From: Dehalococcoidales bacterium
GTDB lineage: Bacteria > Chloroflexota > Dehalococcoidia > Dehalococcoidales > UBA5760
Assembly: GCA_021161775.1 (NCBI GenBank)
Contig: JAGGZY010000016.1
Coordinates: 1 to 55,191 of the forward strand
Reading direction: 5' to 3'
DNA: 55,191 nucleotides
In this document: piece after piece, positions 16,813 to 49,176 of the stretch
How the letters are laid out: each line of letters starts with the position of its first letter
Position numbering within the stretch: the stretch's first letter is position 1
Made by a program: the position numbers and the translations under genes
Notes under the pieces: generated by a model
The model's database searches: none
What the model saw: the letters and a program-made list of their open reading frames with translations, nothing else
Told to the model about the DNA's origin: nothing

Positions 16813-17514
16813 TTAAAACGGCCTCTCACCGGGAATAACTGTAATTCCCTTTTTACCAATACGCAAACGGTGGATGCCCATATCGTGATTGGTACCTCGC
16901 ATTTTTGCTATCTGAATGGCTCGGTAGGTAGGTGTTACATACAGGACAATGACGCCATGACTTACAAATTGCTCAATCCCGTAGCGTGTGGTTTTGGCTT
17001 CTCCTTCAACCATCTCGGTCAAGAGCAAGGTGGTGCAACCCAACTCCCTCAGCATGGCTCCTATCCGTAGTACATCACGACGCAACGCAACTACATCATG
17101 ATACGGCAGTCCCAGAGAGGCTATAGAGTCGAAAACGATACGCTTGGCATTAATCTTTACCGCCTGCTGGTGAATGTTGTCCAGCAAGCCGTTAATGTCG
17201 ACCCTCTCTTGGCTGACTTCAAATGGAATCGGTGACTGGACTATAGCCAGCTTCCCCTGTCCTATCAGTTGCTCCAACTCCCAGCCATAGCGACTCATAT
17301 CCCGGAGGATGTCAGTAGCCTCCTCCTCTAGGGTTACCAGAAGCCCGTTCTCTCTAAAGCTGGCACTACCGTTATACAGAAACTGCATACCCAGGGTGGT
17401 CTTCCCTGACCCTGCCGCTCCGGTTACCAGTGTGACACGCCCGTTTAGTAATCCACCCTCAATAAGCTCATCCAGTCCGGACACTCCTGTGGGTACTCGC
17501 TCTATGTCTACCAT
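16813..17514 (-). CDS. KaiC/RecA-like single-domain ATPase (COG0467-type)
   Basis: The N-terminus reads RVPTGVSGLDELIEGGLLNGRVTLVTGAAGSGKTTLGMQFL (Walker A). Walker B is RIVFDSIASL. The 233-aa size is typical of stand-alone KaiC-like domains. Confidence 0.8.
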   Translation of the reverse strand: MVDIERVPTGVSGLDELIEGGLLNGRVTLVTGAAGSGKTTLGMQFLYNGSASFRENGLLVTLEEEATDILRDMSRYGWELEQLIGQGKLAIVQSPIPFEVSQERVDINGLLDNIHQQAVKINAKRIVFDSIASLGLPYHDVVALRRDVLRIGAMLRELGCTTLLLTEMVEGEAKTTRYGIEQFVSHGVIVLYVTPTYRAIQIAKMRGTNHDMGIHRLRIGKKGITVIPGERPF

Positions 17515-17530
17515 CTTAGCCTCCCGAGGT

Positions 17531-17824
17531 CTATTTGCGTTTAGTATCTTTGCTGGTCCACAGCTTGGGGAGATTAGGGTCTTTAAAGCGCAGGCTAAAC
17601 AGCTTAGGCGTTTCCCCTCGTCTGATTACCAAATCCTCCTGCTGTAGTCGATAGAGGACAGCATGTACCCGAGAATAGGGTATCTCGGTTTGGGCACTGA
17701 TTACCTTGGCAGAAGATTCACCTATCTCGTTTAGTAGTTTATAAACCTTTACCTCATCCTCGCCCAAGTCCAAAAGTTCTGGATACCTCTCGATAAAGGA
17801 CATTACCTTCTTCTCCCTTCCCAA
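17531..17824 (-). CDS. Small winged-helix transcriptional regulator, TrmB-like HTH
   Basis: LDLGEDEVKVYKLLNEIGESSAKVISAQTEIPYSRVHAVLYRLQQEDLVIRR matches the TrmB N-terminal wHTH pattern as I recall it (L.L..E..vY..L...g..ta.eia....ip.srvy.vL..L....lv). Confidence 0.65.
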   Translation of the reverse strand: MGREKKVMSFIERYPELLDLGEDEVKVYKLLNEIGESSAKVISAQTEIPYSRVHAVLYRLQQEDLVIRRGETPKLFSLRFKDPNLPKLWTSKDTKRK

Positions 17825-17854
17825 ACTAATTAAGCTGAATAACCAATTCCTCTT

Positions 17855-19102: not shown

Positions 19103-19122
19103 TCACCCCTTTCGGGAATATA

Positions 19123-20253
19123 CTAAGGCTTAGACTGTTCTCCCAATTTTAACCACTCTCTAGAAAACTTGGACCACTTCATGTTAGCGACACGAGCGTA
19201 GTAATCAGTGTTGTCCATCCTGAGTTGAATCAATCCGTCCATCACATATTTCATATTGTTCAGCGTTTGTTCTGATATCGCACCCTCTTCCACAACATAG
19301 AGAGTAGCCACGCCTCCATAGCTAGTAGCGGTGCGGGTAAGTTGAGCTATAAGACGCTGGACCAGGGCTAGCTCGAAGTTGGTGAACAGGCTGGTAATCG
19401 AATCTAAAATACGTCTACCACCAGCTTTACCACCTACTGATTGTCCCAGTTCCATCCCGGCGTCACTAATAAGACCAGCCAATTGGTTCAGTTCCAAGAG
19501 ACCGCTTACAGCAAAACGCTCCGTACCCCTGACATTGCCCCGACTCCAACCATACCCATCTACTAAGCAGAAATTACCTTCCCCCTCGTATTCGCTAACC
19601 GGTTTTGGCAGCATCATATCAAGGCTACGCCGAATCATAGTCGGTGCGTCGTCCAGAGTGATAACCATACAACACTCTGAAGCCTTAAGTCCTGTAGCTA
19701 GAAAACGACGGCAGAGGGAACTTTTACCAGAACCAGTCTCACCAACAACCAGTATATTTGAACCCTGTGGCAAACCACCACCCAGTGCCTCATCTAATTG
19801 GCTATCACCACAACTTATTCTATCAACTACTCCCTTTGGTTCAGGTGATGGAGACGGCTCGGCGGCTAGTTTACCATGCATGGCTCGTGACCTGACTAAT
19901 AGAGCAGCGACTCTGGCACGTAGTACAGATGGACTGAAGGGCTTGGTCAAATAATCATCAATGCCTTCCTGAAAGGCTTTGAGTTCATCCTGCTCCTCGG
20001 AGAGCGCGGTTAACATTATGATGGGTACCGATGCCGTAGTACGGTTACTACGCAGGTCATGGGCTAGCTCATAGCCACTCTTTATCGGCATCATAACATC
20101 GGTAATAATGAGAGCGGGCTTTTTATCTAGCGCCATCCCAAAGCCTTGCTCTCCATTAATTGCCTCCAGGACTTCATATCCCGCACTGCTGAGGAGTGTC
20201 TTTAGAAGATGCCGAGTGGATTCATCATCATCTACAATGAGGATCCTATCCAT
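19123..20253 (-). CDS. Response-regulator receiver fused to a KaiC/RecA-like ATPase domain
   Basis: The N-terminal REC reads ILIVDDDESTRHLL...PALIITDVMMP...K. A linker follows, then GDSQLDEALGGGLPQGSNILVVGETGSGKSSLCRRF (Walker A) and RRILDSITSL (Walker B). Confidence 0.8.
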   Translation of the reverse strand: MDRILIVDDDESTRHLLKTLLSSAGYEVLEAINGEQGFGMALDKKPALIITDVMMPIKSGYELAHDLRSNRTTASVPIIMLTALSEEQDELKAFQEGIDDYLTKPFSPSVLRARVAALLVRSRAMHGKLAAEPSPSPEPKGVVDRISCGDSQLDEALGGGLPQGSNILVVGETGSGKSSLCRRFLATGLKASECCMVITLDDAPTMIRRSLDMMLPKPVSEYEGEGNFCLVDGYGWSRGNVRGTERFAVSGLLELNQLAGLISDAGMELGQSVGGKAGGRRILDSITSLFTNFELALVQRLIAQLTRTATSYGGVATLYVVEEGAISEQTLNNMKYVMDGLIQLRMDNTDYYARVANMKWSKFSREWLKLGEQSKP

Positions 20254-20254
20254 G

Positions 20255-20968
20255 TCAGACTGTCTCCCTGATTACAATACCTCGCTTAGGTAGAATCTCA
20301 AAGACATGGTCATTCAAATCAGTCGGAGTCCCCCGCATCTTAGGTATGTAGAGGGTCCGAACACGATGAGCCTGTATACTGCTTACCCCCAAAACGATAA
20401 TACCAGAGACGACGAACTCCTCGACTCCATATTGGCAAAGTCTAGTCGTTCCTGAAGGAATCGCTGAGGTAATAACGGTGGTGCAGTGTAGATTATCCTC
20501 AATAGAGAAAATAAGGCTTCTGATATATTCCTTTACCTGAGCGGTTGCTTCCTGGCTAAAAATAAGGGGCGCAATAGGGTCAATGACCACCGTCTGAGCG
20601 TTAATTTGCCGCACATGTTTAGTAAGGTCAGTGACTATTGAGCGTACATCAATAACCTTCTCTTTACCCATACGCACATTAGTGAAGTAGGGTGTCGCAT
20701 CCAGAAGGGTTATCCTTTTGTCATCGACATATTTTTTCAGGTCCCAGCCGAGAGATTCGGCATCCTCCAGCAAGTGACTAGGCTTCTCATCGATAGAGAT
20801 ATAAACGCTATTTTCTCCACGAGCTACTCCAGCCAGGACATATTGCAGACAGAGGATAGTTTTCCCCGTTCCGGCTTGACCGCTGACTAGAAAGACCTTG
20901 TCTTCCGCTAAGCCCCCACTTAGGAGACTATCAAGTCCATCGACGCCGGTTGCAATTCTACGACGCAT
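20255..20968 (-). CDS. KaiC/RecA-like single-domain ATPase (COG0467-type)
   Basis: The N-terminus reads IATGVDGLDSLLSGGLAEDKVFLVSGQAGTGKTILCLQY (Walker A). Walker B is TVVIDPIAPL. Its stop is 1 nt from the start of the next gene (TGACATG). Confidence 0.8.
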   Translation of the reverse strand: MRRRIATGVDGLDSLLSGGLAEDKVFLVSGQAGTGKTILCLQYVLAGVARGENSVYISIDEKPSHLLEDAESLGWDLKKYVDDKRITLLDATPYFTNVRMGKEKVIDVRSIVTDLTKHVRQINAQTVVIDPIAPLIFSQEATAQVKEYIRSLIFSIEDNLHCTTVITSAIPSGTTRLCQYGVEEFVVSGIIVLGVSSIQAHRVRTLYIPKMRGTPTDLNDHVFEILPKRGIVIRETV

Positions 20969-26731: not shown

Positions 26732-29416
26732 ATGGAAAGGTTGAAGGCATTTTTTGACCCCAAAAGCGTAGCATTAGTAGGAGCTACAGATAAGCGAAAT
26801 GCTGTAGGGCGGATAATTCTGGACAATCTCTTACTGGCTCGGGAGAAGCGCCAAGTCTACCCGATAAATCCCAATCGGGAAGAGATATTTGAGTTAAAGT
26901 GCTATCCTGACATAAGCTCTCTACCTGAGGTTCCTCAGCTGGTCGTCATTGCCATCCCGGCTCAATTTGTTCCTGATGTAGTTGAAAAATGTGGCCAAGC
27001 CGGTGTCAAGTCTATAGTCATTATCTCCAGTGGCTTTAAGGAGATAGGGGCTGAGGGAAAGGCGTTGGAAGCTAAGATAACTGATATAGCCTCGGAATAT
27101 GGAATCAGAATAGTGGGGCCCAACTGTTTGGGTGTAATGAAACCCAGCACTGAGTTAAATGCAAGCTTTGCCAATAAGCTGTGTAAGCCCGGGCATATAG
27201 CTCTCTTATCACAGAGTGGTGCTCTAGCCACCGCTATCCTCGACTGGGCGGCTAGTAGAGACATCGGTTTTAGCGCTGTTGCTTCACTGGGTTCTATGCT
27301 CGATGTAGATTTTGGAGACCTGATAGATTACCTTGGTGGAGACCCTGAGACCCAGAGTATCATCGTTTATCTAGAGTCCTTGGGTGACTCCCTGACCCAT
27401 ACCAAGAGGTTTATGAGCGCTGCCCGGGGGTTTGCCCGGACAAAGCCGGTGATGGTGATCAAACCGGGGAAGTCTCAAGAGAGCAGGGAGGCAGCTCAGT
27501 CCCATACCGGAGCTATGGTGGGAGATGATTTGTACTATGATGCCGTTTTTGCCAGAGCTGGTGTGGTGAGGGTGGAAGAGATTGGGGACATTTTTAACTG
27601 CGCCTCTGCATTGAATGCTGCGCGATTGCCTCATGCCCCAAATCTGGCCATAATAACCAATGCTGGCGGACCGGCAGCATTAGCCACTGATGCCCTGATA
27701 GACAAGGGTGGCAAGTTAGCTCAACTAGGCGAGAAAACCCTTGCTGCTCTAAACGAGTTCCTGCCTCACTACTGGAGTAAATCTAATCCTATCGATATCT
27801 TGGGAGATGCCGACCCGCGAAGATATGTGAAAACTATCGAGGCAGTTCTTAAGGACCCCGGTGTTAGTGGCGTCATTATTATCTATACACCTCAAGGTGC
27901 GGCTAAACCGACTCAGATAGCTAGGACCATCATTAAGTATATTGGGAAGAATGACAAGCCTATCCTGGTCGCTATGATGGGTGGTGAGGAGGTGGCCGAG
28001 GCAAAGCAGATATTCTGTGGGAACGGGATTCCCATCTTTGAGTTCCCTGAAGATGCCGTCAAGACGTATCTCTATATGTATAAATACGCTCGCAATCTAG
28101 AGATGCTATATGAAACCCCGGAGGATTTGCCTCTGGAGCGCGGAGCTCCAAAGAATTACCTTAAAATACTGGCTCGTAAGGCAGTAATGGCGGGGCAATC
28201 GCTACTGAGTGAAGAGGATTCTAAGAAGTTCTTGACCACGTATGGCATCTCTGCTACTATTCCATATACGGCTAGCAATGCTGAGGAGGCTGTCAGGGTA
28301 GCGTCACGCGTTGGTTACCCGGTGGCGATGAAGATTTCCTCCCCTGATATAACCCACAAATCGGATGTCGGTGGTGTGATGCTAAATATTTCCTCAGATA
28401 GCGAGGTTAAAAAAGCATTTGACGAAATTATAGGAAACGCTAAAAAGCACCAGCCTAAGGCTAGAGTGGATGGGGTTAGCCTGCAGAGGATGGTGACAAA
28501 ATATGATTGCGAACTTATTATTGGCAGCAAAAAGGACCTGACTTTGGGTCCGGTGATTATGTTTGGTCTTGGCGGGACAGAGGCAGAGTTCTTTAAAGAT
28601 GTTGCTATAGGGTTACCCCCTCTCAATCAGATATTGGCTAGAAGGGTGATAGAGCAAACCAAAATCTACAAACTGCTATCTGAGGGATTCAGGGCAGTCC
28701 CTCCGGTTAACATGCTACTAGTGGATGAAGTTCTGGTGGCGGTGTCAAACTTAATTGTTGACTTCCCGGAGATAAAGGAGCTGGATATCAATCCCTTAGT
28801 CATAAGTGGCGATGTTGCTGTTGCTCTCGATGCAAGAATTATCCTTGACGAAGAAGTGGTGCGAAGGGGAGTAGAGGAACATGCCCACTTAATAATATCC
28901 CCTTATCCTACCAAGTATATCCAACCCTGGAGAGTGAGGGATGGCAGACAAGTACTACTGAGGCCAATCAGGCCTGAAGACGAACCGCTGGAAAGGGAGC
29001 TCATCGCTAATCTATCACCAGAGACATCCAGGTTCCGCTTTTTCCATGTGCTTAAGGAGACGACCCACGAGATGCTCAACCGGTTCTGTAATATTGACTA
29101 TGACCGGGAGATGGCTATTATCGCTGAGTATACCTCAAATGGTAAGAGAAGGAATGTTGGCGTGGGAAGGCTGTTAATTGAGTTTGGCAGAGAAATTGGA
29201 GAGTTCGCTGTAGTGGTTGCTGACGATTTTCAGGGTAACGGTCTAGGGCAGAAACTTGTTGACATGCTGATAGATGTTGCCCAGGGGAAGGGCCTGAAGA
29301 GCATCTATGGCGTCGTGTTGAACGATAATAAGAAGATGATTGGTTTGGGCACGAAGCTCGGCTTTATTGTGGAGAGGTATTCCCCCGAGGAAAGTAAACT
29401 GGTCTTGGAACTCTAA
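26732..29416 (+). CDS. Pat-type protein lysine acetyltransferase (ADP-forming acyl-CoA synthetase-like domains + C-terminal GNAT)
   Basis: The 894-aa ORF starts with a CoA-binding/succinyl-CoA-synthetase-like N-terminus (SVALVGATDK...IVGPNCLG...SQSGA). An ATP-grasp middle follows. The C-terminal GNAT carries FQGNGLGQKLVDMLI. Confidence 0.85.
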   Translation: MERLKAFFDPKSVALVGATDKRNAVGRIILDNLLLAREKRQVYPINPNREEIFELKCYPDISSLPEVPQLVVIAIPAQFVPDVVEKCGQAGVKSIVIISSGFKEIGAEGKALEAKITDIASEYGIRIVGPNCLGVMKPSTELNASFANKLCKPGHIALLSQSGALATAILDWAASRDIGFSAVASLGSMLDVDFGDLIDYLGGDPETQSIIVYLESLGDSLTHTKRFMSAARGFARTKPVMVIKPGKSQESREAAQSHTGAMVGDDLYYDAVFARAGVVRVEEIGDIFNCASALNAARLPHAPNLAIITNAGGPAALATDALIDKGGKLAQLGEKTLAALNEFLPHYWSKSNPIDILGDADPRRYVKTIEAVLKDPGVSGVIIIYTPQGAAKPTQIARTIIKYIGKNDKPILVAMMGGEEVAEAKQIFCGNGIPIFEFPEDAVKTYLYMYKYARNLEMLYETPEDLPLERGAPKNYLKILARKAVMAGQSLLSEEDSKKFLTTYGISATIPYTASNAEEAVRVASRVGYPVAMKISSPDITHKSDVGGVMLNISSDSEVKKAFDEIIGNAKKHQPKARVDGVSLQRMVTKYDCELIIGSKKDLTLGPVIMFGLGGTEAEFFKDVAIGLPPLNQILARRVIEQTKIYKLLSEGFRAVPPVNMLLVDEVLVAVSNLIVDFPEIKELDINPLVISGDVAVALDARIILDEEVVRRGVEEHAHLIISPYPTKYIQPWRVRDGRQVLLRPIRPEDEPLERELIANLSPETSRFRFFHVLKETTHEMLNRFCNIDYDREMAIIAEYTSNGKRRNVGVGRLLIEFGREIGEFAVVVADDFQGNGLGQKLVDMLIDVAQGKGLKSIYGVVLNDNKKMIGLGTKLGFIVERYSPEESKLVLEL

Positions 29417-29438
29417 CCAAGGAGCTTTGGATAAAGCT

Positions 29439-30548
29439 TCATCGCAAACATGTCCAGTAGTCTTTAAGCCTATTCTTAACATCCCCTATGATTTTCTCGG
29501 TTTCCGCTAGAGCAAGGTCGGAACTAAAGCGTTGAGGGACGGGTTCGGGTTCTTCTATTTTAAGCTCAATACCGGTTAATCCAGCAATCAAAGCCAGCCA
29601 AGCATATGGCAAAACCCTCTTGTTATAGCCGGAGGCGAGCAAGTCAATAGCTTTATCATCGCAAATTTTAGCCATCTCTTGGACCTTTTCACCAATCATT
29701 CTGAAGCCTCTCAGCGAGAGCCCCAACGTAGTGAGTCCATCGTTGAGGTGGGGATCTGAACCACCATTTCGGATAATAAGCTGAGGTCGAAATTCCTCAG
29801 TCAACGGTTGCACGATTGACTCGAAAGCCAATCGATAGGAATCATCGCCAGCATAAATTGGTAGTGGGACATTAACAGTAAAGCCCTTGCCTTTATCGAG
29901 ACCAATTTCGTGAGCGAAGCCTGTCCCGGGGTAGACGGTCTTGGGGTCCTGATGAATGTCAATAAATAAGACCCTCGGATCCCGATAAAAATACTCCGAA
30001 GTTCCGTTTCCTGCATGAGCATCAGTATCTAGGATCAGGATTCTCTCCAATTTATACTCCTGCATTAAATATAAAGCGCTGAAAGCAACGTCGTTGTATA
30101 TGCAAAACCCTTCACCATAAGAAGATTTAGCATGGTGCATCCCACCACCTACAGACACTACTTTCTTGAATTTACCCTCTTGAACTAATTCACAGGCTGT
30201 TTTTGCCTGTCCAACGATTAGTCTCGCGGCCTCTTCTACCTTCCCCGTCTCCCCCATAATAGGTTGATTATCTCCGCTATGAAATCTATAGAATGGGTTA
30301 GGGTAGCTTGCCCCCAGATTAGCGGCTTTGTAGTACTCCTTTGTGAAGTCGATATAGTCTTTCTGGCAGATTAAGGATAAATCTTCATCACTTGCCGGTT
30401 CGGCTTTAATAATCCGGTAATTGTTATTCTCCGGTAGGGTATCCTTCAGGAACTCAGGAAATATTTCGTAGCGGTCTCCACGGAAAGGGTGACCTGGCCC
30501 GAAATCATATTCCTTTAGTTCCTCTCGATATAAAATTCCAATTGCCAT
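29439..30548 (-). CDS. Histone-deacetylase-family (AcuC/HDAC class I-like) zinc deacetylase
   Basis: GGGMHHAKSSYGEGFCIYND and ILILDTDAHAGNGT are the Zn-binding D..H..D arrangement of the arginase/deacetylase fold. Confidence 0.85.
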   Translation of the reverse strand: MAIGILYREELKEYDFGPGHPFRGDRYEIFPEFLKDTLPENNNYRIIKAEPASDEDLSLICQKDYIDFTKEYYKAANLGASYPNPFYRFHSGDNQPIMGETGKVEEAARLIVGQAKTACELVQEGKFKKVVSVGGGMHHAKSSYGEGFCIYNDVAFSALYLMQEYKLERILILDTDAHAGNGTSEYFYRDPRVLFIDIHQDPKTVYPGTGFAHEIGLDKGKGFTVNVPLPIYAGDDSYRLAFESIVQPLTEEFRPQLIIRNGGSDPHLNDGLTTLGLSLRGFRMIGEKVQEMAKICDDKAIDLLASGYNKRVLPYAWLALIAGLTGIELKIEEPEPVPQRFSSDLALAETEKIIGDVKNRLKDYWTCLR

Positions 30549-36333: not shown

Positions 36334-36636
36334 TTATAATCCGGGGAGGTTAAAGCCGCCGGTTATCCCTTTTAGCTTGTTAATAGAGACCTTCTGCGAT
36401 TTAGTAATGGCATCACTGACCGCGGTTAACACCAGTTTCTCCAGTTGCCCGGGGTTTGCCGGGTCAATCACCCCGGGGGAGATTGCTATAGATTGCACCC
36501 TTTGTTGACCATCCATAACAACCTTAACGTCTCCCTTGCCTGAACTGCCTTCGATTATAGTCTGGCTCAGCTCTTGTTGAGCCTTATTTAGCCTGGCTTT
36601 AAGCTGACGGGCTTGATTTATTTGGGATAGATTCAT
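36334..36636 (-). CDS. ybaB: Nucleoid-associated protein YbaB/EbfC
   Basis: 100-aa ORF between dnaX and recR, which is the conserved order. It has the typical Q-rich helical N-terminus followed by a V.V..G pattern. Confidence 0.85.
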
Positions 36637-38294
36637 TTCTCCTCCAGGTTAATAATTTTGCCCCCCATCTCTAAGGCGGCTTTTACCAGATGATTAGCCT
36701 CTGGTGGAGCTGGTCGGTCTGTCTGATTAATACAGCGCACGTGACAGGGACGGCCGATGAAGTTACTCAGTATCCTTTCTGCTATCTGTTGGTTTTGAGG
36801 CTTCTCCATATTCTCCCGATGAAAGGGGTATTTGAATGCCAGGACTATGGTATCATTCTCAAAGGCTACCGGCTTGCCGGAGCTTCTCAGGAAGGCGATA
36901 GCCTGGGTTCGTTTGGTATCCGGGGGGGCTTGCTCGATAACCTGCTTCCAGTGGCGTTTCAGAGACTCAATTTCCTGGCCCGGCTCAGGTGGAGTAATGA
37001 CTACCTCAGAGGTAGGAGTTGGCGTTGGCTTAGGGGTTAGTGTAGGAGTTGGCGTTGGCTTAGGGGTTAGTGTAGGAGTTGGCGTCGGCTTAGGGGTTAG
37101 TGTAGGAGTTGGCGTCGGCTTAGGGGTTGGTATAGAGACTGGTGTTGGTTTGGGCGTTGATTTGGAAATTGGTGTTGGTGTTGGCTGGTCTTCTTCGGGG
37201 TTTAGGGCGCAGTCAACCAGGGCTAGTTCCAGTGGCAGGGTAGAGTAACTATCTAGGCTAGAGCTAAGCTGGCCGAAGAGCTTGACCGCTTTTAGTATCA
37301 GGTTCAGGGGAGCTTTAGTGGCTAGTGTCTTTAGCCGGGCGATGTCCTCGGCGGTGAGGTCAACGGCTTCAGCGGAGCCGGCCTTGATGAGCAGCAGGGC
37401 GCGGAGATAGTCTACCAGTTGCCAATTGAACTGGCGTAAATCCAGTCCATCGCTACGGACACTGTTTATAGTGGTTATTCCAGCGGCGATATCGTTATTT
37501 ATGATGTGGGTTACTATCTCTCGGGCCCGCTGGTCTTCACTGATACCCAGGGTAGTCTGAATCTGGGAGCGATTGATTTCGGTACCATAACTGGTAATTA
37601 GCTGTTCCAGTATATTTTCGGCATCTCGCAGACTGCCGGTGGCGCTTTGGGCAATAAGTCGTAGTGCCTCAGGCTCGATATGAACCTCCTCAGCATCACA
37701 GATACGGGTTAATCGGCTGATGATATCTGTTTGGGGGATGCGGCGAAAATCAAAGCGCTGGCATCGCGATATAATGGTAGGCAGGACTTTATGAATCTCG
37801 GTGGTGGCGAGGCTAAAAATGACCGATGGTGGTGGCTCCTCCAGAGTTTTCAGGAGGGCGTTGAAGGCATTATTACTGAGCATATGGACTTCGTCAATGA
37901 TATAGACCTTGTAACGGGCTTGGCTAGGGGCGTAGTTGGCTCTCTCGCGTAGCTCGCGGATGTTATCGACCCCGGTATTACTGGCGGCGTCAATCTCGAT
38001 GACATCTAACGCCCGGCCCTCGGTAATGGCACAGCACATAGAGCAGGTATTACACGGCTCACCCTGGCCATTAGTCAGGCAATTTACTGCCTTAGCCAAA
38101 ATACGCCCGGTGCTGGTTTTACCGGTGCCTCGGGGTCCACAGAAAAGGTAAGCATGAGCTATCCGACCACTACGCAGGGCATTGAGCAGTGTCCGGGTAA
38201 CATGTTGCTGACCAACTACCTCAGCTAGGGTTTGGGGACGCCATTTACGGTACAGAACCTGAGAAGCCATTTTATCGCTTTTATTATACCCCAT
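36633..38294 (-). CDS. dnaX: DNA polymerase III subunit gamma/tau
   Basis: [18 protein letters not shown] and [15 protein letters not shown] (Walker A) are present. A Zn module CxxC..C..C, the DEVHML motif and the SRC motif follow. The Pro/Thr-rich linker comes later in the protein. Confidence 0.9.
37021..37140. repeat. Tandem 30-bp repeat (~4 copies) inside dnaX encoding a ([10 protein letters not shown])n linker
   Basis: GGCGTTGGCTTAGGGGTTAGTGTAGGAGTT is repeated head-to-tail with 0-1 mismatches for 3 copies and a degenerate 4th. It stays in frame, giving [10 protein letters not shown] repeats in the protein. Confidence 0.85.
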
Positions 38295-38357: not shown

Positions 38358-39533
38358 TTATAATAGTGAAGGTATATCCTTAGAGGCGTCATCTATTTCC
38401 TTGAGCTTACTGGCTAGTTCTTGTTGCTTTTGCTTCACCTCTTTGATAACCACGGTTGATTCTCGGTAGAAGACCTTGACCTTTTCCACATTGTCCAGTT
38501 CGGAGAGGATTACGGCTACATCCAGCAACCCTCTATTTCGGGGGTAGTCGCCGCTCCTGATGATAGCCTTGGGTGCCAAACTTCTCATATAGTCCCCGAG
38601 GTCCTTGACTAGGTCCATGTTCATCTCATTAGCTGGTGCCGAAAGGAGATATAGTGCCCGGTTAGCATCCTGGGGATTACACTTGAGGGATAGCTCACTC
38701 AGGGCTTCATCCATAGCTTGGATTCCCTTGTCGGTTTCACTACTTTTTACCCTGAAGTTGTGCTTTTGGCGTGGGGAAGGTTTGAAGAAGGGTAATTCCG
38801 ATTTACCGTAACCGATTACAGTCCATCCCGCTAGGGTCTGGATGATGTCACCAGCGTCAAGGGTTTTGGAGCCAATGTGTTTTCGCTTTTTCTCCTCACC
38901 AGCGCAGAGCAGATTGTAAAATGGTTCCACTATTGACCGGTTGATTTGGTCGATGTTGTTGCTAACTGAGGAGTCCTTGTGGACATACCTCTGGTTGTCA
39001 ATCAGGAATATAGCATCGGCCGTGGTATTGGCTGACTTCAGGCATACCGCCGAATTATAGATGGTTCTTTCCTCGGTCTCCTCCTCGTGCTGGAAGGGGA
39101 GGATAATAAGATTATAGATCGGTTTATCCATATAGCGCTCTTTTATTAGCTGGGTCACTATGGGTAGTGAGCCGGAGCCGGTGCCGCCGGCGGAGCTGGC
39201 AATTAGCAAAAAGGCATCGGCGTCACGAAAATGCTCGGTGCTCCTGATAGCATCGATAATCTTGTCGCTGTCCTCTCGGGCTATCTCAGCTCCCAGCTCA
39301 TTAATCTTACCTACCCCGTGACCACCAGTCTTTCGTCCTCCAATGAGAATTCGGTGTTTGTAATCAGGTCGGATAGTATATAGACCACTCAGGTCGGCGG
39401 CATCGGTGTTTACCGCGAAAGCGCCGGTAACGATATCAATTCCTCGGTAGCTGCGCGCTCTGCCGTTAAGCCGGGCAAACTCGTCAGCGATTCTACCACC
39501 ACACTGCCCAAAGCCGATGATTACTAATTTCAT
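38358..39533 (-). CDS. Tubulin/FtsZ-superfamily GTPase, non-canonical (paralog A, ~391 aa)
   Basis: From ATG 39533 (GGAG RBS): MKLVIIGFGQCGGRIADEF, AVNTDAADL, GGHGVGK, SSAGGTGSG (T4 signature), LIDNQRY (T7-like). The C-terminal tail is KDIPSLL. The track start 39581 adds 16 unlikely residues. Confidence 0.8.
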   Translation of the reverse strand: MKLVIIGFGQCGGRIADEFARLNGRARSYRGIDIVTGAFAVNTDAADLSGLYTIRPDYKHRILIGGRKTGGHGVGKINELGAEIAREDSDKIIDAIRSTEHFRDADAFLLIASSAGGTGSGSLPIVTQLIKERYMDKPIYNLIILPFQHEEETEERTIYNSAVCLKSANTTADAIFLIDNQRYVHKDSSVSNNIDQINRSIVEPFYNLLCAGEEKKRKHIGSKTLDAGDIIQTLAGWTVIGYGKSELPFFKPSPRQKHNFRVKSSETDKGIQAMDEALSELSLKCNPQDANRALYLLSAPANEMNMDLVKDLGDYMRSLAPKAIIRSGDYPRNRGLLDVAVILSELDNVEKVKVFYRESTVVIKEVKQKQQELASKLKEIDDASKDIPSLL

Positions 39534-39610
39534 TTTCTGCTCCGGTAATCGAATAATTGTATTAATTAAGCCATACTTCATGTATTAATGTCAATTGCGG
39601 TGACGCTGTA

Positions 39611-39639
39611 TTGCAAAACCAAATGGCTTGTCATAAAAT
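39611..39639 (+). promoter_or_regulatory. Sigma-70-like promoter (TTGCAA-N17-TAAAAT) upstream of the 25-residue-repeat protein gene
   Basis: TTGCAA lies at 39611-39616 and TAAAAT at 39634-39639 with a 17-nt spacer. It is about 48 nt upstream of ATG 39687. Confidence 0.4.
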
Positions 39640-39686
39640 AGGGGACATAAAAAGTGCCAGTTGAAATCTAAGGGTGGTTAACCGAG

Positions 39687-40964
39687 ATGGCGGAAAACAG
39701 CATCGGAGCTGTAGAGAAGGCGGTAGCTAGGGCAGAAATACTGAATAAGTCAGCCAGAGAGGCTTCCGAGGCAACAATAATGGCAGCTCGGGAAGCTATC
39801 ATCAGGGCGGAAGAACTGGGCGAATCAGCTAGGAAAGCAGCTGAGGCGGCAACTAGGGCAGCTCAGGAAGCTATTGCTAGGGCAGAGGGGGTAAGACGGG
39901 AGTCGGCAGAGCATACTGAGGCATTGTCAGCGGCGTTTCAGAAAGCTATTGCCAGAGCGGAAGAAACTATCAGGTCAAATAAAGAAGCTACTGAGACTCT
40001 AGTTACCACCGCTAAGGAAGCTATAATTAGGGCGGAGAAGGTGGCTAGGACGGCTAAGGAGGTAGCGGAGATTTCGCTGAAAGAGTCACAGGAGGCGGTA
40101 GGTCGGATTGAGGGGATAGCTATTATGGCTAAGGAGGCGGCGGGTGAAGCTACCGATGTGTCTCGGGAAGCTGCTAGTAGGGCAGGAGAGATAGGCAAAT
40201 CATCGAAGAAGACGGCGGATGAAGCCATCAAGGCATCCCGGAAGGCGGTGGCTAAGGCGGATAAGGTAAGTAAGGCACTTGAGGAGGCTACTGAGGCATC
40301 AACTAAGGCGTTTGATAGAAGCATCGGACGGACGGAGGAAGCTACTCACTGGGCTAGAGAGACCATTGAGATGTCGATTATGGCGTTTGACAAGGCAATA
40401 AGCGGGGCTGAGGGGTTAAATCAGCAAGCCAGGGAGGTAGCTGAGTCGGTGAGAAGAACCTCCCAGGAGGCGATAGCCAGGATAGAGGCGATAAGTAGGG
40501 AGGTTCAAGAGACAGCGGCGGCGGCGGCGAAGGCATCCCAGGAGGCGATAGCCAGAGCGGAGGGGGTAGCTAGAGGGGTCAAGGGAACAGCTGAAGGGGC
40601 AAAGCGGGCCGCGGGGCTGGCTGTGTTGCCGATTAGGGAGACAGCAGCCTCAGGTACCCGAGCCGAAAAGCTGGTGGAAGCGGAGGTTGAGTCAGTTCAG
40701 GCAAAGCGGATGGGGAAGCTGGTGGCAAAGTTGGTTAAGGCAACAAGCCCTGCGGAGAAGGCGACTCCGCCAGCTAAAACAGCTAAGCCGGAAGCCAAGC
40801 CGGAGGTCAAACCAGAAGTCAAGCCGGAGGCCAAGTCGGCTGAGGAGGTAGCTAAGCTTGCCAGAAAGAGGATGGAGAAACGGCTGGAGTCGCTGACCAA
40901 AATGTATGCCACCGGTAAAGATAAGAATTTTGATGAAGGATCTGAGGATAGAGAGGACAAGTAA
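39687..40964 (+). CDS. Ala/Glu-rich helical repeat protein (12 x 25-residue repeats) with a Lys/Pro/Glu-rich C-terminal region
   Basis: 425-aa ORF with no TM segment or signal peptide. It contains repeats of (E/K)A(I/V)xRAE-x18. The tail contains KPEAKPEVKPEVKPEAK and a charged C-terminus. Confidence 0.8.
   Translation: MAENSIGAVEKAVARAEILNKSAREASEATIMAAREAIIRAEELGESARKAAEAATRAAQEAIARAEGVRRESAEHTEALSAAFQKAIARAEETIRSNKEATETLVTTAKEAIIRAEKVARTAKEVAEISLKESQEAVGRIEGIAIMAKEAAGEATDVSREAASRAGEIGKSSKKTADEAIKASRKAVAKADKVSKALEEATEASTKAFDRSIGRTEEATHWARETIEMSIMAFDKAISGAEGLNQQAREVAESVRRTSQEAIARIEAISREVQETAAAAAKASQEAIARAEGVARGVKGTAEGAKRAAGLAVLPIRETAASGTRAEKLVEAEVESVQAKRMGKLVAKLVKATSPAEKATPPAKTAKPEAKPEVKPEVKPEAKSAEEVAKLARKRMEKRLESLTKMYATGKDKNFDEGSEDREDK
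39717..40616 (+). repeat. Twelve tandem 75-nt (25-codon) coding repeats
   Basis: Counted by hand. KAVARAE, EAIIRAE, EAIARAE, KAIARAE, EAIIRAE, EAVGRIE, EAASRAG, KAVAKAD, RSIGRTE, KAISGAE, EAIARIE and EAIARAE each start exactly 25 residues after the previous one. Confidence 0.85.
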
Positions 40965-41056
40965 TGATATATAATTACTTGACTTTGTCGGCGGTTGAAA
41001 TTTAAGCTAATTAGTAAATCTTATTATAGTAAATCTTAATTAAAGGAGATTCTGGT

Positions 41057-41623
41057 ATGAGTCAGGATGAGCGGGTTCCAAAGGTTCAGAGACAGGTTGG
41101 GCAGCAGGATAGCAAGACAGAGAAGCCGGTCGGACAGCCAGCGGTAAAGCCGGTTGAGTCACCGGCGGCAAAGCCTTCTGAAGTTCGTGCTTCCTTGAGT
41201 GAAATTCTGGGGCGAGCGGAGAAGGCATATGCGGCTTACACTGATGCTCAAAAAGAGGTGGCCAAGGCTTACCGAGATAGCGAACTGGAAGCTGAGAAGA
41301 GTTATCGGGATAGCCTGCGGCAGGCGAGGAATGCCCGTGATGAAGGTATGATACAGGCTTTGAAGGTTCGTGATGAAACATCGGTTAAAATTCTGGCGGC
41401 TCGTACTGAGGCTATGGCTCAGGCGGAACAGATTTATCGGAAGGCTATCGGACAGGCGGAACAGGTGGCAAAGGATGGTGAACTGCGAGCCAAGAGCACC
41501 TATGATGAAAGTGTCAAGCAGATTTTAAGGACCTATGAGGAAGCGATAGCTCGGGCAGATAGAAAACGTACCGAAACTATAGACCAAGCCTGGAAAATCT
41601 ACAGTCGGGAAAGTGAGTCATAG
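41057..41623 (+). CDS. Small helical protein related in motif to the upstream repeat protein
   Basis: 188-aa ORF. The Pro/Lys/Gln-rich N-terminus (KPVGQPAVKPVESPAAKP) is followed by helical segments carrying ILGRAEK, KAIGQAEQ and EAIARADR, the same AIxRAE-type motif. The spacing is less regular. Confidence 0.7.
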   Translation: MSQDERVPKVQRQVGQQDSKTEKPVGQPAVKPVESPAAKPSEVRASLSEILGRAEKAYAAYTDAQKEVAKAYRDSELEAEKSYRDSLRQARNARDEGMIQALKVRDETSVKILAARTEAMAQAEQIYRKAIGQAEQVAKDGELRAKSTYDESVKQILRTYEEAIARADRKRTETIDQAWKIYSRESES

Positions 41624-41671
41624 ATTAGTTCGGGGGCAGCAGCTATTTCCTCGTGTTTATTACTGAGTTGG

Positions 41672-42835
41672 CTATAACAGTGAGGGGATGTCCTTGAAGG
41701 CTTCGGTTAGGTCTTGATGTTCAGTCTCTATCCCTTCCCGTTTTCGCTTGATGGTAGCGACGAGGTCAATGGTCTGGGTGAAGTAGTCTGTAATCTTGTT
41801 CACCCCACTGAGTTCAGAGAGGATTACGGTAATGTTCACGGCTGACTTTCCACGAGGGTAGTCTCCGGTTCTTATTGTTGCCTCCGGAGCAATGTGCTTG
41901 AGATGAGCCCCGATGTCCCTGACCAGGGTCATATCCATTTCCTTGGGTGGTGCTGAGAGGAGATATAGCCCCCGGCCAGCATCGGCAGGATTACAGCGGA
42001 GGGATAGCTCACTTATGGCGTTATTAATTACCTGAACCCCTCGTTGGTTTTCGGTTATCTTATCCCTGAAGTCAAGGGGGCTTCTGCGGCGTCCTATTGA
42101 GGACTGACTGTAGCCCATCACCGTCCACCCGGCTAGGGTCTGAATTATATCTCCGGCATCAAGTATCCTCGACCCAATGTACTGGGGCTTGGTCTCTTCA
42201 CCAGCACAAAGCAGGTCATAAAACGGTTCCACTATCATAGCGTTGATTTTAGCCAAGTTGCCTCTGATGGAGATGTTCTTACTGATATACCGCTGGTTAT
42301 CAATCAGAATTACGGCATCAGCCACCAGGTAAGCCGATTTAAGACAGGTAGCTGAGTTATAGACCGTTCTCCCCTCGGTTTCCTCTTCATGCTGGAAGGG
42401 AAGGGCAATAAGATTGTATATCGGCTTTTCGATATAGCGTTCTTTTAACTGCTGGGTTAAGGTGGCTATCGCCCCTGAGCCGGTTCCGCCGGCGGAGCCA
42501 GCAACCAGTAGAAAGGCGTCGGTCTCGGAGAGGTTTTCGGTTGACCTAACGGCATCAATAATCTTATCGCTGTCCTCTCGGGCTATCTCGGCTCCCAGCT
42601 CATTAATCTTGCCTACGCCATGTCCCCCGGTCTTGCTACTGCCGATAATGATGCGGTGTTGGTAGTCAGGTCGGATAGTAGCCAGCCCGCTCAGGTCAGC
42701 AACATCGGTGTTAACGGCGAGGACTCCGGTGATGATGTCCAGCTTACGCTCAATACGCGCCCTCATCCCCAGCCGGGCAAACTCGTCGGCAATTCGGCCT
42801 CCGCATTGTCCAAAACCTATAACCAGTAATTTCAC
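41672..42835 (-). CDS. Tubulin/FtsZ-superfamily GTPase, non-canonical (paralog B, 387 aa)
   Basis: MKLLVIGFGQCGGRIADEF, AVNTDVADL, GGHGVGK, GSAGGTGSG, LIDNQRY, and the C-terminal tail KDIPSLL. It is collinear with paralog A over its whole length. Confidence 0.8.
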   Translation of the reverse strand: MKLLVIGFGQCGGRIADEFARLGMRARIERKLDIITGVLAVNTDVADLSGLATIRPDYQHRIIIGSSKTGGHGVGKINELGAEIAREDSDKIIDAVRSTENLSETDAFLLVAGSAGGTGSGAIATLTQQLKERYIEKPIYNLIALPFQHEEETEGRTVYNSATCLKSAYLVADAVILIDNQRYISKNISIRGNLAKINAMIVEPFYDLLCAGEETKPQYIGSRILDAGDIIQTLAGWTVMGYSQSSIGRRRSPLDFRDKITENQRGVQVINNAISELSLRCNPADAGRGLYLLSAPPKEMDMTLVRDIGAHLKHIAPEATIRTGDYPRGKSAVNITVILSELSGVNKITDYFTQTIDLVATIKRKREGIETEHQDLTEAFKDIPSLL

Positions 42836-42839
42836 TTTA

Positions 42840-43145
42840 CTACCATTTCAGAATATTCTTAATAACAGTGGAATGATTTTTCTGGATAATCTTGGTTGCT
42901 GTAGTGTTTACCTTGCCCGCCCCGTGGCCAAAGGTTCTTAGCTCTCCGGGCAGCATCCGATGGTGTTTACCCTTGGGAAGATATTCCAGTCTTTTCAGGT
43001 CTACCTCGCTGGTGTTGACAGCGAAGGCATCAGCCAGAATAGTGAGCCTCCGGTTAAGTATTGACCGGGAGCAATTGTTAATCGCACAAAACTGGTCGGC
43101 AATACTACATCCACATTGCCCTAGACCAATAACAACTAATCTCAT
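42840..43145 (-). CDS. N-terminal-only tubulin/FtsZ-like paralog (101 aa; possible pseudogene or partial tandem duplicate)
   Basis: MRLVVIGLGQCGCSIADQF...FAVNTSEVDL...GHGAGKVNTTATKIIQ aligns with the first ~100 residues of paralog B. It stops before the GGTGSG signature, 4 nt upstream of paralog B's start. Confidence 0.6.
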   Translation of the reverse strand: MRLVVIGLGQCGCSIADQFCAINNCSRSILNRRLTILADAFAVNTSEVDLKRLEYLPKGKHHRMLPGELRTFGHGAGKVNTTATKIIQKNHSTVIKNILKW

Positions 43146-47380: not shown

Positions 47381-47647
47381 GTGGCTACGGGCAAACTCTA
47401 TAAGGCTGATGGTGAGGAATTTCTGGTCGAGGTTAATTACCAGCTACTTAATAGCTCAGCGACTGACTGGTGGGGGGAGCTAGTGCCTACCGAATACCGG
47501 CGGATGGCTGATGGTGATGGCTATATACTGGAGTTTGAGGACGGACGCCGTGGCCGCTGTGTGCTTAGGAAGAGGGTTAATCGGGCGGTTAGTGGTCCCC
47601 CTCCCCTCTATCATTACCAGTTTCGGGGCTGTGGCCAGCTTAAATAA
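47381..47647 (+). CDS. Hypothetical protein (88 aa)
   Basis: GTG start after an AGAGAGG RBS, 13 nt (47366-47380 is 15 nt) downstream of the proB stop. No family was confidently recognised. A weak resemblance to DUF4873-type small beta proteins is only an impression. Confidence 0.5.
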   Translation: MATGKLYKADGEEFLVEVNYQLLNSSATDWWGELVPTEYRRMADGDGYILEFEDGRRGRCVLRKRVNRAVSGPPPLYHYQFRGCGQLK

Positions 47648-47670: not shown

Positions 47671-49176
47671 ATGAATGAGTTGAAAACCAATGTTCTTTAC
47701 TTCGGGGATAATCTAGAGATACTGCGGAATCATATTCCCGATAACTCTATTGACCTTATCTATCTTGACCCGCCGTTTAACAGCAAAAAGGATTATAACA
47801 TCCTGTTTAAGGAAAGCAGTGGCGTTGAGTCTGAAGCCCAGATAAAAGCCTTTACCGATACCTGGCACTGGACCCAGATTGCCGAAGACATCTACCACGA
47901 CATTGTGGTTAATGGGCCATTAAAGGTAGGCAAACTGATTGGCGCTCTTCATGATGCCATCGGCAATAATGATGTGATGGCATATCTGGTGATGATGACG
48001 GCAAGGCTGATAGAGCTACATCGAGTTTTAAAATCCACCGGCTCTCTGTATCTTCACTGCGACCCGACCGCCAGCCACTATCTAAAGCTGGTATTAGACC
48101 AGATATTTGGCCCAGCCAATTTCAGGCGAGAGATAATTTGGTCAATGGAAACGTCCTCTGGTTTTAAATCTCAAGCTAATATGTGGATACGAGGGCATGA
48201 CACGATTCTTATGTATAAAAAGGGAAAGAATTACAATTTCTACAGGCAATTCCTACCGTTAGACGAAAGAACAGTAAGACGATACGATAAAGTGGATGAT
48301 GAAGGCAGACGATATAAAATTTATTATGAACGAGGCAAAGAGCCAAGAATAGTTTATCTCGACAAATCGAAGGGTCGTCCAGTAACAGACGTTTGGACTG
48401 ATATAATCAGTTTTCAAACAGTTAATAGAGGCCCTGAATATCTTGGCTATCCTACCCAGAAGCCCCTTGCTTTGTTGGAGCGTATTATTCAAGCCAGCTC
48501 AAATGAAGGAGATATTGTCCTTGACCCCTTCTGTGGCTGTGGCACGGCGGTTGTCGCTGCTCAAAAGCTAAATAGACGCTGGGTAGGCATTGATATTACC
48601 CATTTAGCCATAAACCTGATGCGTAACCGCCTCAAGGATAGCTTTGGCATTAAAGCGGAGGTTATCGGCGAGCCAAAGGATTTAGCGGGGGCTAAGTCTC
48701 TGGCTTTGGAAAAGCCCGATGGACGTTATCAGTTCCAATATTGGTCGCTGGGTTTGATTGGAGCCAGACCCCTCGGCGAGAAAAAGAAGGGCGCTGATAA
48801 GGGCATTGACGGCGTCATTCAGTTTATAGATGGGGCTGGCGGTAAGCCAAAGCGGGTGATAGTTCAGGTAAAGAGTGGACATGTTGGGGCAAACGCTATT
48901 CGGGAACTCAAGGCAGTAGCCGCCAGTGAGGCTATGGGTGTCTTTATCACCCTTGAGCCGCCGACAGGCCCGATGAAGGTAGAGGCAGTTGATGCTGGTT
49001 ATTATCATTCCCCAGTCTATAACAAGGACTATCCTAAAATACAAATACTGACTATAGAGGAGCTATTTGCTGGCAAGATGGTTGATATGCCACCGCAAGC
49101 TCAGACCAATGTAACCTTTGCCAAAGCACCAAAGATTTCCAAAAAAGAAGGGGAGCAGCTTTCTACAGGGATATAG
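47671..49176 (+). CDS. Beta-class DNA methyltransferase (DPPF; probably N6-adenine) fused to a C-terminal Mrr-like PD-(D/E)xK nuclease-fold domain
   Basis: Motif IV (IDLIYLDPPFNS) comes near the N-terminus and motif I (VLDPFCGCGTAVVAAQKL) later, which is the beta-class order. The C-terminal ~140 aa carries GADKGIDGVIQF...RVIVQVKSGHVGANAIRELKAV, the Mrr_cat-type D...(Q/E)xK core. Confidence 0.85.
   Translation: MNELKTNVLYFGDNLEILRNHIPDNSIDLIYLDPPFNSKKDYNILFKESSGVESEAQIKAFTDTWHWTQIAEDIYHDIVVNGPLKVGKLIGALHDAIGNNDVMAYLVMMTARLIELHRVLKSTGSLYLHCDPTASHYLKLVLDQIFGPANFRREIIWSMETSSGFKSQANMWIRGHDTILMYKKGKNYNFYRQFLPLDERTVRRYDKVDDEGRRYKIYYERGKEPRIVYLDKSKGRPVTDVWTDIISFQTVNRGPEYLGYPTQKPLALLERIIQASSNEGDIVLDPFCGCGTAVVAAQKLNRRWVGIDITHLAINLMRNRLKDSFGIKAEVIGEPKDLAGAKSLALEKPDGRYQFQYWSLGLIGARPLGEKKKGADKGIDGVIQFIDGAGGKPKRVIVQVKSGHVGANAIRELKAVAASEAMGVFITLEPPTGPMKVEAVDAGYYHSPVYNKDYPKIQILTIEELFAGKMVDMPPQAQTNVTFAKAPKISKKEGEQLSTGI

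Follow-up and report, generated by a model that had tools for sequence, protein, structure and literature searches.

CetZ-like GTPases in Dehalococcoidales bacteria and two coiled-coil proteins encoded with one of their paralogs

To which branch of the tubulin superfamily do the GTPases encoded in a stretch of Dehalococcoidales housekeeping DNA belong, and are the helical proteins encoded beside them their partners? The locus lies on contig JAGGZY010000016.1 of a Dehalococcoidales bacterium (UBA5760; assembly GCA_021161775.1), of which we analyzed 55,191 nucleotides (nt) of the forward strand, hereafter the window. Five open reading frames (ORFs) had been described there from sequence: two full-length GTPase paralogs, A and B; a truncated third, C; and two Ala/Glu-rich proteins, H1 and H2. 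All five are present, with the coordinates and strands given for them (Table 1). The original prediction placed A and B nearer to archaeal CetZ than to the division FtsZ, and it proposed a GTP-driven filament with a filament-binding or scaffolding partner, acting in cell shape or membrane remodeling.

Profile searches addressed the family of the GTPases. Both proteins match Pfam Tubulin (PF00091; A, 112 bits, E = 5e-32; B, 113 bits, E = 2e-32; cut-off 33 bits) and, over nearly the whole model, CetZ_C (PF21011; A, 66 bits, E = 5e-18; B, 57 bits, E = 2e-15; cut-off 21.6 bits). The TubZ-type model Tubulin_2 (PF13809) reached only 20.4 and 17.7 bits, under its cut-off of 27; FtsZ_C was absent from the Pfam matches of A and B even at E values up to 1, and neither protein had a Pfam match to Tubulin_C. 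The FtsZ equivalog of NCBIfam, TIGR00065, scored 61.5 bits for A and 56.6 bits for B against a cut-off of 295.2. When B was compared to all Protein Data Bank (PDB) sequences, the best match was 4B46 (E = 1.3e-44, residues 1–367), followed by 4B45 (E = 4.7e-24) and 3ZID (E = 4.8e-13). The best FtsZ reached 5e-9, and tubulin, BtubA and BtubB ranged from 8e-7 to 5e-5 over about 100 residues only; FtsZ and tubulin matches alike span only part of the GTPase domain. The entries 4B46 and 4B45 are CetZ1 and CetZ2 of Haloferax volcanii (PMC9856176). Because the CetZ_C match is present, CetZ1 and CetZ2 are the best PDB relatives and the FtsZ model failed, we conclude on sequence grounds that A and B, and likewise C, are CetZ-like rather than FtsZ, as had been supposed. 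The FtsZ-like families FtsZl-1 and FtsZl-2, which Makarova and Koonin reportedly described in 2010, are said to be encoded in an operon with membrane-remodeling genes; membership of A and B in either is unlikely because the CetZ_C match is clear.

A and B are 61% identical, and their alignment retains the T1, T3, T4, T6 and acidic T7 loops, so that both are predicted to be intact tubulin-superfamily GTPases with a CetZ-type C-terminal domain. The motifs quoted in the original prediction all occur in the two proteins, but one of them had been misassigned: LIDNQRY, described as T7-like, aligns instead with the 'DNxxx' element of T6/H6 (DNDAW in CetZ1, PNDKL in FtsZ). The T7 loop is LDAGDIIQTL, which aligns with VDSSEIINTL of CetZ1 and retains the D-x-x-D of FtsZ VDFADV. 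A and B thus resemble Haloferax CetZ1 and CetZ2 in combining a GTPase domain with a CetZ-type C-terminal domain, in the GxGQxGG, GGTGSG and acidic signatures of T1, T4 and T7, in aligning with full-length CetZ1 (E = 1e-44), and in occurring as several paralogs per genome, in a host reported to have an S-layer and no murein wall. They differ in T1 (GQCGG versus GQAGG) and in the acidic residue of T7, which is Asp here and Glu in CetZ1. With FtsZ they share the superfamily GTPase fold and a C-terminal D-I-P-x-(F/L)-L peptide behind a variable linker, but they lack FtsZ_C, the GGGGxN form of T1 and a dcw neighborhood, and a canonical ftsZ is reported in the host order in addition (PMC10608941).

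Three GTPase-anchored scans of species-representative genomes were used to map the family. The first returned 56 Dehalococcoidales loci, the second one archaeon and another 69 species of Dehalococcoidia, these being of the SAR202 or large-genome type, and a scan with the A-type alignment 546 matching stretches. Among 1.84 billion cluster representatives, only 922 clusters matched at E values up to 1e-3. The close homologs (73–83% identity) all come from metagenome-assembled genomes (MAGs) of Dehalococcoidia/Dehalococcoidales, where they are usually annotated as 'cell division protein FtsZ' or 'tubulin/FtsZ family protein'. Within the family we distinguish A, B, C, deep and SAR202 classes; full-length C-type, deep-clade and SAR202-type proteins also match both Tubulin and CetZ_C in Pfam. 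A tblastn search with Escherichia coli FtsZ, a query verified against the PDB (808 bits), gave no match in the window or in 126 related loci.

In a bootstrapped neighbor-joining tree, built without labeled Thermococcales CetZ, the Dehalococcoidia proteins form one clade (94% bootstrap). In this tree they lie outside the canonical CetZ group of HvCetZ1/2 and Halogeometricum 'CetZ' (85%), which would be a further difference from archaeal CetZ. Within the clade, A-position and H-associated paralogs form a subclade (88%), and the H-associated ones group together at 68%. The nearest outgroup in the plain tree consists of Nitrososphaerales (thaumarchaeal) proteins, a pairing with only 10% support. 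The boundary of the canonical clade has been set at the Thermococcales CetZs (Brown & Duggin 2023). A and B cluster neither inside ordinary FtsZ nor inside a characterized family with this neighborhood. Their host is bacterial, not euryarchaeal: the window carries bacterial dnaX, recO, recR and ybaB, and all close relatives are Dehalococcoidia MAGs.

CetZ has been described as archaea-specific, confidently identified only in Euryarchaeota, and is implicated in Haloferax cell shape (PMC9856176). For Chloroflexota, a 2023 phylogenetic study mentions such sequences in one sentence and notes that its CetZ_C hidden Markov model matched them at about 1e-10 (Santana-Molina et al. 2023, PMC9871819), and beyond that paper we found nothing on Dehalococcoidia CetZ-like proteins. 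The family mentioned there is the one to which A and B belong; the monophyly, the 546 matches, the paralog classes and the link to H1 and H2 are reported here. The original prediction had called this an uncharacterized system, which holds for function, paralog structure and partners, none of which that paper gives, but not for the family as such, which had been mentioned in passing.

Several members of the family deserve separate mention. The only relative found from a named genus is a Dehalogenimonas sp. TCA1 MAG (L038/L127 in our numbering of loci), in which a single A-like CetZ gene with the T1 sequence GQAGS follows eno and gap; next to it come genes for a histidine kinase and a response regulator, and H1 and H2 are missing. 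Among the best 80 of the 546 matches, this is the one Dehalogenimonas MAG, and cultured species of Dehalococcoides or Dehalogenimonas do not appear, which suggests that cultured strains lack the family. Five loci with typical Dehalococcoidia CetZ-like genes (L054, L113, L162, L175 and L190) come from MAGs labeled WWE3, Saccharibacteria or Deltaproteobacteria, most likely through mis-binning rather than real occurrence. The deep-clade genes (L042–L052) are ~50% identical to A and B; in one of these loci, L045, two large secreted proteins are encoded upstream of the CetZ-like gene (5358–6890 and 8094–9671), each with a signal peptide and a C-terminal membrane anchor; Pfam, run on the second of them, finds TIG/Ig-like repeats, and the two could be S-layer or surface proteins.

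We then asked how H1 and H2 relate to the GTPases. The gene order eno-gap-(C)-B-H2-H1-A-dnaX-ybaB-recR of the window recurs in many species, in which identity of H1 and H2 falls to 30–55%. Of the 136 CetZ-like genes whose downstream sequence extends for 2.5 kb or more, 46 precede convergent H2/H1, 69 precede dnaX and 21 precede neither; in no case are both present. A reverse search from H2 found 104 relatives. In the best 80 of these 104, all from Dehalococcoidales-type MAGs, a convergent CetZ-like gene lies within 600 nt downstream of H2 at 79 loci, and H1 is immediately upstream of H2 at 73 of the 74 loci with room for it. The B-H2-H1 unit also occurs in the order gap-A-B-H2-H1-dnaX (L013, L014 and L030) and alone (L012, L025, L053 and L056), and loci that lack a B-type gene, such as L021, L032, L034 and the Dehalogenimonas locus L038, also lack H1 and H2. 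We conclude that H1 and H2 are dedicated partners of the B-type paralog and are inherited together with it. Synteny of the repeat proteins with the GTPases, which the original prediction had made its test, is found in dozens of species, with GTPase-anchored and H2-anchored searches alike; the pairing it proposed applies to the B-type paralog and not to A and B equally. Such dedicated coiled-coil genes also set this locus apart from archaeal cetZ genes, for which a review of CetZ names nucleotide, cofactor and pili genes as neighbors and none of this kind (PMC9856176).

Could H1 and H2 nonetheless be mere neighbors, that is, amphipathic proteins of the late embryogenesis abundant (LEA), phasin or apolipoprotein kind with a stress or lipid role of their own? 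They are encoded on the strand opposite to A and B and are therefore not in the same operon, their interaction with the GTPases is a proposal only, and hendecad repeats such as those of H2 are typical of lipid- or desiccation-related amphipathic helices. This explanation would have to accommodate an adjacency that has persisted while the sequences diverged to ~30% identity and the genes around them were rearranged several times, as well as the near-constant presence of the GTPase in loci found through H2 and the joint absence of H1, H2 and the B-type gene, and we consider it very unlikely. The neighborhood of dnaX raises a second possibility, namely that the filaments move or anchor the chromosome in the manner of TubZ or PhuZ, with H1 and H2 as adaptors for DNA segregation or nucleoid positioning. 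Tubulin-superfamily segregation systems do exist in plasmids and phages, the 69 loci with dnaX downstream have A-type genes directly upstream of dnaX-ybaB-recR, and one SAR202-type locus has dnaX downstream as well. However, Tubulin_2 remains below its cut-off, neither a TubR-like DNA-binding gene nor centromere-like repeats were found (only trivial tandem repeats), H1 and H2 have no DNA-binding domain and accompany B, the paralog that is not beside dnaX, and the genes are chromosomal, class-wide and not mobile. Like the mere-neighbor explanation, segregation is thus unlikely, to the point that we would be surprised to see it borne out.

A different arrangement occurs in the SAR202-type group, which lacks H1 and H2. 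There, a conserved 316-residue protein is encoded after the CetZ-like gene in 62 of 70 loci (for example, L064:7320–8267). In it, a transmembrane anchor at the N terminus is joined by an acidic linker of low complexity to a C-terminal domain without a Pfam match, and the protein is a different candidate partner, possibly a membrane anchor, for the same GTPase family.

H1 and H2 had been described as helical repeat proteins, and the periodicities of both lie far beyond chance. H1 contains twelve in-register 25-residue repeats without insertions or deletions (consensus ..ikAsqEAIARAEev.rsAkEaAE), with a lag-25 identity of 0.34 versus 0.12 in shuffled sequences (z = 12.8); H2 has a lag-11 periodicity (z = 6.4), and the hydrophobic Fourier peaks of H1 and H2 have z scores of 32 and 8.7, respectively. 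The hydrophobic period of H1, 3.57 (25/7), is common to all 30 complete orthologs, which measure 464–800 residues and all keep the 25-residue period, with rods ranging from the ~12 repeats seen here to ~30 repeat lengths. Recent tandem duplication was ruled out as the source of the repeats: Tandem Repeats Finder detected no 75-bp array in the DNA, and the periodicity is therefore maintained at the protein level. The best-conserved parts of H1 are its N-terminal head (FEKAVARAE.LSK.AREAAE) and its C-terminal end (RLEFLARMYA..K, within a conserved helix bearing RLExLxKMY), the latter behind a disordered, charged Pro/Glu/Ala/Lys linker that varies among orthologs. H2 begins with a disordered Pro/Gln/Lys-rich segment and continues as a hendecad rod with a hydrophobic period of 3.66 (11/3), which all orthologs keep, and ends with the conserved motif TIxQAWxIY. 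Its orthologs vary by indels of exactly 11, 22 or 33 residues, and invariant Tyr residues are spaced 11 apart. AlphaFold2 modeled H1 as helices 2–169 and 171–350, a disordered stretch and helix 385–408, and H2 as helices 40–140 and 143–187. No signal peptide or hydrophobic segment was found in H1 or H2. Together, these features identify H1 and H2 as long, cytoplasmic, non-heptad coiled-coil proteins.

Neither protein could be placed in a described family. No Pfam or NCBIfam family, including ZapA, ZapB, EzrA and SepF, reached its cut-off for H1 or H2, and a profile of H2 orthologs compared with PDB and Pfam gave only compositional matches to designed helical bundles. Foldseek returned nothing significant for H2 and, for H1, only generic antiparallel coiled coils (chemoreceptor cytoplasmic domains and the arms of SMC, MukB and Rad50) at template modeling (TM) scores of 0.2–0.35, which we do not read as homology. 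Homolog searches of large databases with H1 and H2 returned nothing, not even the queries themselves, with composition-bias correction the likely cause. Coiled-coil-rich cytoskeletal proteins with non-heptad repeats are known in bacteria, among them Scy and FilP, with 51-residue repeats, and crescentin; EzrA and ZapB are coiled coils that bind FtsZ. H1 and H2 resemble Scy, FilP and crescentin in being long cytoplasmic coiled coils of unusual but strict period (25/7 and 11/3) whose rod length varies among orthologs while the ends are conserved. Neither by sequence nor by profile are they similar to these three, or to EzrA and ZapB, and they have no EzrA-type transmembrane anchor. We know of no 25-residue repeat unit described for the Scy/FilP, crescentin, EzrA or ZapB families.

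The GTPases themselves carry a candidate interaction element. Behind a variable linker, the C terminus of every paralog class reads (K/R)D(I/L)P(S/T/V)L(L/I) or something close to it: DIPSLL in A and B, NLPTLG or ELPSLD in C-type proteins, DLPTLE in the deep clade and QIPDL in SAR202-type proteins. This tail is the best-conserved segment of the protein (0.94 and 0.91, versus 0.84 and 0.81 for the GTPase domain), and acidic-hydrophobic C-terminal ends occur in many distant family members, some of them confirmed archaeal. DIPSLL aligns with DIPAFL at the C terminus of E. coli FtsZ, a likeness that we regard as a resemblance in design, with a putative docking partner. Paralogs encoded without H1 and H2 retain the tail as well, so that it probably docks to a receptor of general use, for example FtsA, SepF or some other membrane protein.

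This resemblance bears directly on the main rival to a role in cell shape, in which the CetZ-like paralogs join the FtsZ-FtsA ring as division accessories, with H1 and H2 as cross-linkers or regulators of the Zap/EzrA type, in a multi-paralog constriction machine comparable to FtsZ1/FtsZ2 of wall-less archaea. DIPSLL is similar to the peptide through which FtsZ binds FtsA, ZipA and SepF, known FtsZ regulators are often coiled coils, and the genes are embedded in strings of constitutive housekeeping genes, eno-gap and dnaX-ybaB-recR. According to published reports, members of Dehalococcoidales and SAR202 have S-layers but neither a dcw cluster nor peptidoglycan (PMC10608941; PMC11994032). The host order has lost septal peptidoglycan synthesis genes while keeping ftsA and ftsZ (PMC10608941; PMC11994032), the former source recording retention of mraZ-mraW-ftsA-ftsZ and the latter of ftsZ and ftsA. 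In archaea that have no pseudopeptidoglycan wall, two FtsZ homologs seem to be important (PMC9856176). However, the closest characterized relatives, CetZ1 and CetZ2, are described as implicated in cell shape and not as division proteins of the FtsZ type (PMC9856176), the genes studied here show no linkage to mraZ-mraW-ftsA-ftsZ, and neither H1 nor H2 has a match in the Zap, EzrA and SepF families. The absence of ftsA, ftsQ and mur genes, which had been remarked on for the vicinity, extends to the full 55 kb of the window, as does that of ftsZ. Moreover, many Dehalococcoidia have one CetZ-like gene without H1 and H2, and these partners are therefore not core division parts. On balance, the division role strikes us as possible but on the doubtful side.

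We lean, if only slightly, toward a model in which CetZ-like GTP-driven filaments, docked by their tails to a receptor and organized by H1 and H2, shape a wall-less, S-layered cell. On GTP, A and B would assemble in head-to-tail fashion, each T7 loop completing the GTPase site of the following subunit, and A/B co-polymers would be possible. The C-terminal peptide would dock the filaments to their receptor, as the FtsZ C-terminal peptide does. H1 would be a variable-length rod whose head is conserved and whose C-terminal docking helix is tethered, H2 would be a shorter hendecad rod, and the two would bind along or bridge B-containing filaments as bundlers, spacers or envelope links. The module would thereby control cell shape or envelope organization and leave division to the canonical FtsZ-FtsA pair encoded elsewhere. 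A filament with a scaffolding partner in cell shape or membrane organization, which we infer, fits all of the findings.

Several points weigh against this model. Throughout the clade, polymerization, docking at the membrane and the binding of either helical protein are inferred. The FtsZ-like tail fits a division-ring role equally well, and the presence of ftsZ and ftsA in the host rests on order-level literature rather than on this genome. Residues that separate H-associated from A-position paralogs were found only at positions 170 and 356, and they located no partner surface. The models of H1 and H2 were computed from single sequences (predicted local distance difference test (pLDDT) of 76–77, predicted TM score (pTM) of 0.41–0.43), and their fold matches are generic coiled coils at most. 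A register of one H1 repeat per filament subunit was considered and set aside: 25 residues have a helical rise of ~3.7 nm, which is 10–15% short of the ~4.0–4.4 nm subunit spacing of tubulin-family protofilaments.

A bolder version of the filament model takes the analogy with eukaryotes further. It holds that Dehalococcoidales own a multi-component tubulin-type cytoskeleton, derived from a CetZ-like ancestor shared or exchanged with archaea, in which A and B form an obligate heteropolymer, as α/β-tubulin or BtubA/B may be taken to illustrate, and H1 and H2 resemble microtubule-associated proteins (MAPs). As periodic coiled-coil rods that run along the filaments or bridge them, H1 and H2 may set filament spacing or length and couple the filaments to the S-layered envelope. 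We regard this version as doubtful. A bacterial precedent is found in Prosthecobacter, where BtubA and BtubB are true tubulins and BtubC (Bklc) is a filament-binding tetratricopeptide repeat (TPR) protein. There, too, the genes of two tubulin-superfamily paralogs lie in a cluster with one that encodes a repeat protein made entirely of helices, and there, too, the restriction to one lineage of bacteria suggests transfer between domains. In contrast, B matches BtubA and BtubB only at E values of 3e-6 to 5e-5 and over part of the GTPase domain, and its partners are two coiled coils encoded on the opposite strand rather than a TPR protein.

The layout of the locus adds detail on how these genes may be expressed. 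B closes the eno-gap-(C)-B string and runs in the same direction as gap and eno, as had been noted, and A heads the string that continues into dnaX, ybaB and recR. H2 and B are convergent, with stop codons 48 bp apart. H1 and H2 are separated by 92 bp, and a strong ribosome-binding site, AAAGGAGA, precedes H2. For A, an alternative longer ORF starts at 39581; the start at 39533 is nonetheless the correct one by sequence criteria because a GGAG Shine–Dalgarno element lies 8 nt upstream and all homologs begin with MKL. A promoter-like site precedes H1 (a consensus match only), but promoter-like and terminator-like sites at the locus are not more numerous than expected from shuffled sequence, and no convincing intrinsic terminator was found there. 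The window is bacterial housekeeping DNA, with serS, lysS, recO, recR, ybaB and dnaX on one side and gap, eno and proB on the other.

C had been called truncated, and it is indeed incomplete, although more exactly it is a remnant left by a deletion of ~0.9–1 kb, since relatives (L001, L002 and L032) carry a full-length gene of ~391 codons in the same place. C retains only its first 100 codons and lacks the T4 loop; against Pfam Tubulin it reaches 30.6 bits, under the cut-off of 33, and over the first half of the GTPase domain only. It is 66% identical to the N terminus of the 391-residue L001 protein (L001:1988–3160), which matches both Tubulin and CetZ_C. C is probably a pseudogene. It may still be translated as a leader, which is conceivable because its stop codon lies 4 nt ahead of the B start codon.

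Table 1. Coordinates of the GTPase locus and of other features in the 55,191-nt window
Feature	Position	Strand	Remarks
Paralog A	38358–39533	-	CetZ-like tubulin-superfamily GTPase, 391 aa; heads A-dnaX-ybaB-recR string
A-H1 divergent intergenic region	39534–39686		153 bp, AT-rich
Promoter-like site for H1	39611–39639		
H1	39687–40964	+	425-aa Ala/Glu-rich coiled-coil protein
H1 repeats	39696–40595		residues 4–303
H1 linker	~40740–40850		
H1 conserved C-terminal helix	40839–40910		
H2	41057–41623	+	188 aa; disordered N terminus (residues 1–39), then hendecad rod
H2 hendecad rod	41174–41620		
Paralog B	41672–42835	-	CetZ-like GTPase, 387 aa, GTG start; ends eno-gap-(C)-B string
C	42840–43145	-	101-codon 5' remnant of third, divergent (C-type) paralog
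T1 GFGQCGG	aa 7–13, A and B; in A nt 39495–39515	-	
T3 GGHGVGK	aa 70–76, A and B	-	
T4 (S/G)SAGGTGSG	aa 113–121, A and B; in A nt 39171–39197	-	
IDNQRY (T6/H6 element)	aa 178–183, A and B	-	
T7 LDAGDIIQTL	aa 225–234; A nt 38832–38861, B nt 42134–42163	-	
DIPSLL of A	38361–38378	-	candidate docking tail; translation verified; FtsZ-tail alignment
DIPSLL of B	41675–41692	-	
Release-factor gene	6546–7550	+	PCRF and RF-1 domains; listed TTG start
Hybrid histidine kinase	13624–16779	-	1051 aa; PAS/GAF and receiver domains
KaiC-like ATPase	16813–17514	-	
Trehalose synthase, TreT-type	17855–19102	-	
KaiC-like ATPase	19123–20253	-	N-terminal receiver domain
KaiC-like ATPase	20255–20968	-	
Pat-like fusion gene	26732–29416		ADP-forming acyl-CoA synthetase-like protein fused to GNAT acetyltransferase
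Histone-deacetylase-family gene	29439–30548		adjoins Pat-like gene
dnaX	36633–38294	-	
dnaX linker	~36990–37170		long, Pro/Thr/Lys; ~4 copies of a 10-residue sequence
Orphan ORF	47381–47647		88 aa; no Pfam match
Methylase ORF	47671–49176	+	501 aa; N6/N4 DNA methylase and C-terminal Mrr-like/inactive restriction-endonuclease domain

Other genes of the window are of interest in their own right. Three KaiC-like ATPase genes stand alongside a hybrid histidine kinase and a trehalose synthase in what looks like a KaiC-based signaling module tied to compatible-solute synthesis (13624–20968), and the Pat-like fusion gene and the histone-deacetylase-family gene look like a protein acetylation/deacetylation pair (26732–30548). 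The small orphan ORF precedes the methylase ORF. The dnaX linker, an unusual insertion of low complexity, separates the ATPase part from the C-terminal part. The release-factor gene matches its profile from position 9; if it is prfB, its true N terminus may lie upstream, behind the usual programmed +1 frameshift.

The findings give CetZ, which has been treated as the archaea-specific third branch of the tubulin superfamily, a monophyletic branch that is common across a bacterial class and has duplicated there into distinct paralog classes. H1 and H2 are two previously undescribed proteins and would be the first candidate partners for a CetZ-type filament because a review of CetZ names no partner proteins (PMC9856176). 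The findings also connect, across the boundary between the domains, a tubulin-like cytoskeleton with the absence of a murein wall, since the host lineages are reported to lack peptidoglycan and to have S-layers and archaellum genes are reported in some SAR202. The family raises the questions of how wall-less Dehalococcoidia maintain their shape and to what the FtsZ-like tails of CetZ-type proteins bind. Because the proteins studied here are small and look soluble, reconstitution in vitro is feasible even though the organisms are uncultured. If the bolder version of the filament model were true, the locus would represent an independent bacterial invention of 'tubulin plus MAPs' in a cell without a murein wall, with H1 and H2 as the first MAP counterparts from a prokaryote to serve a filament of the CetZ type.

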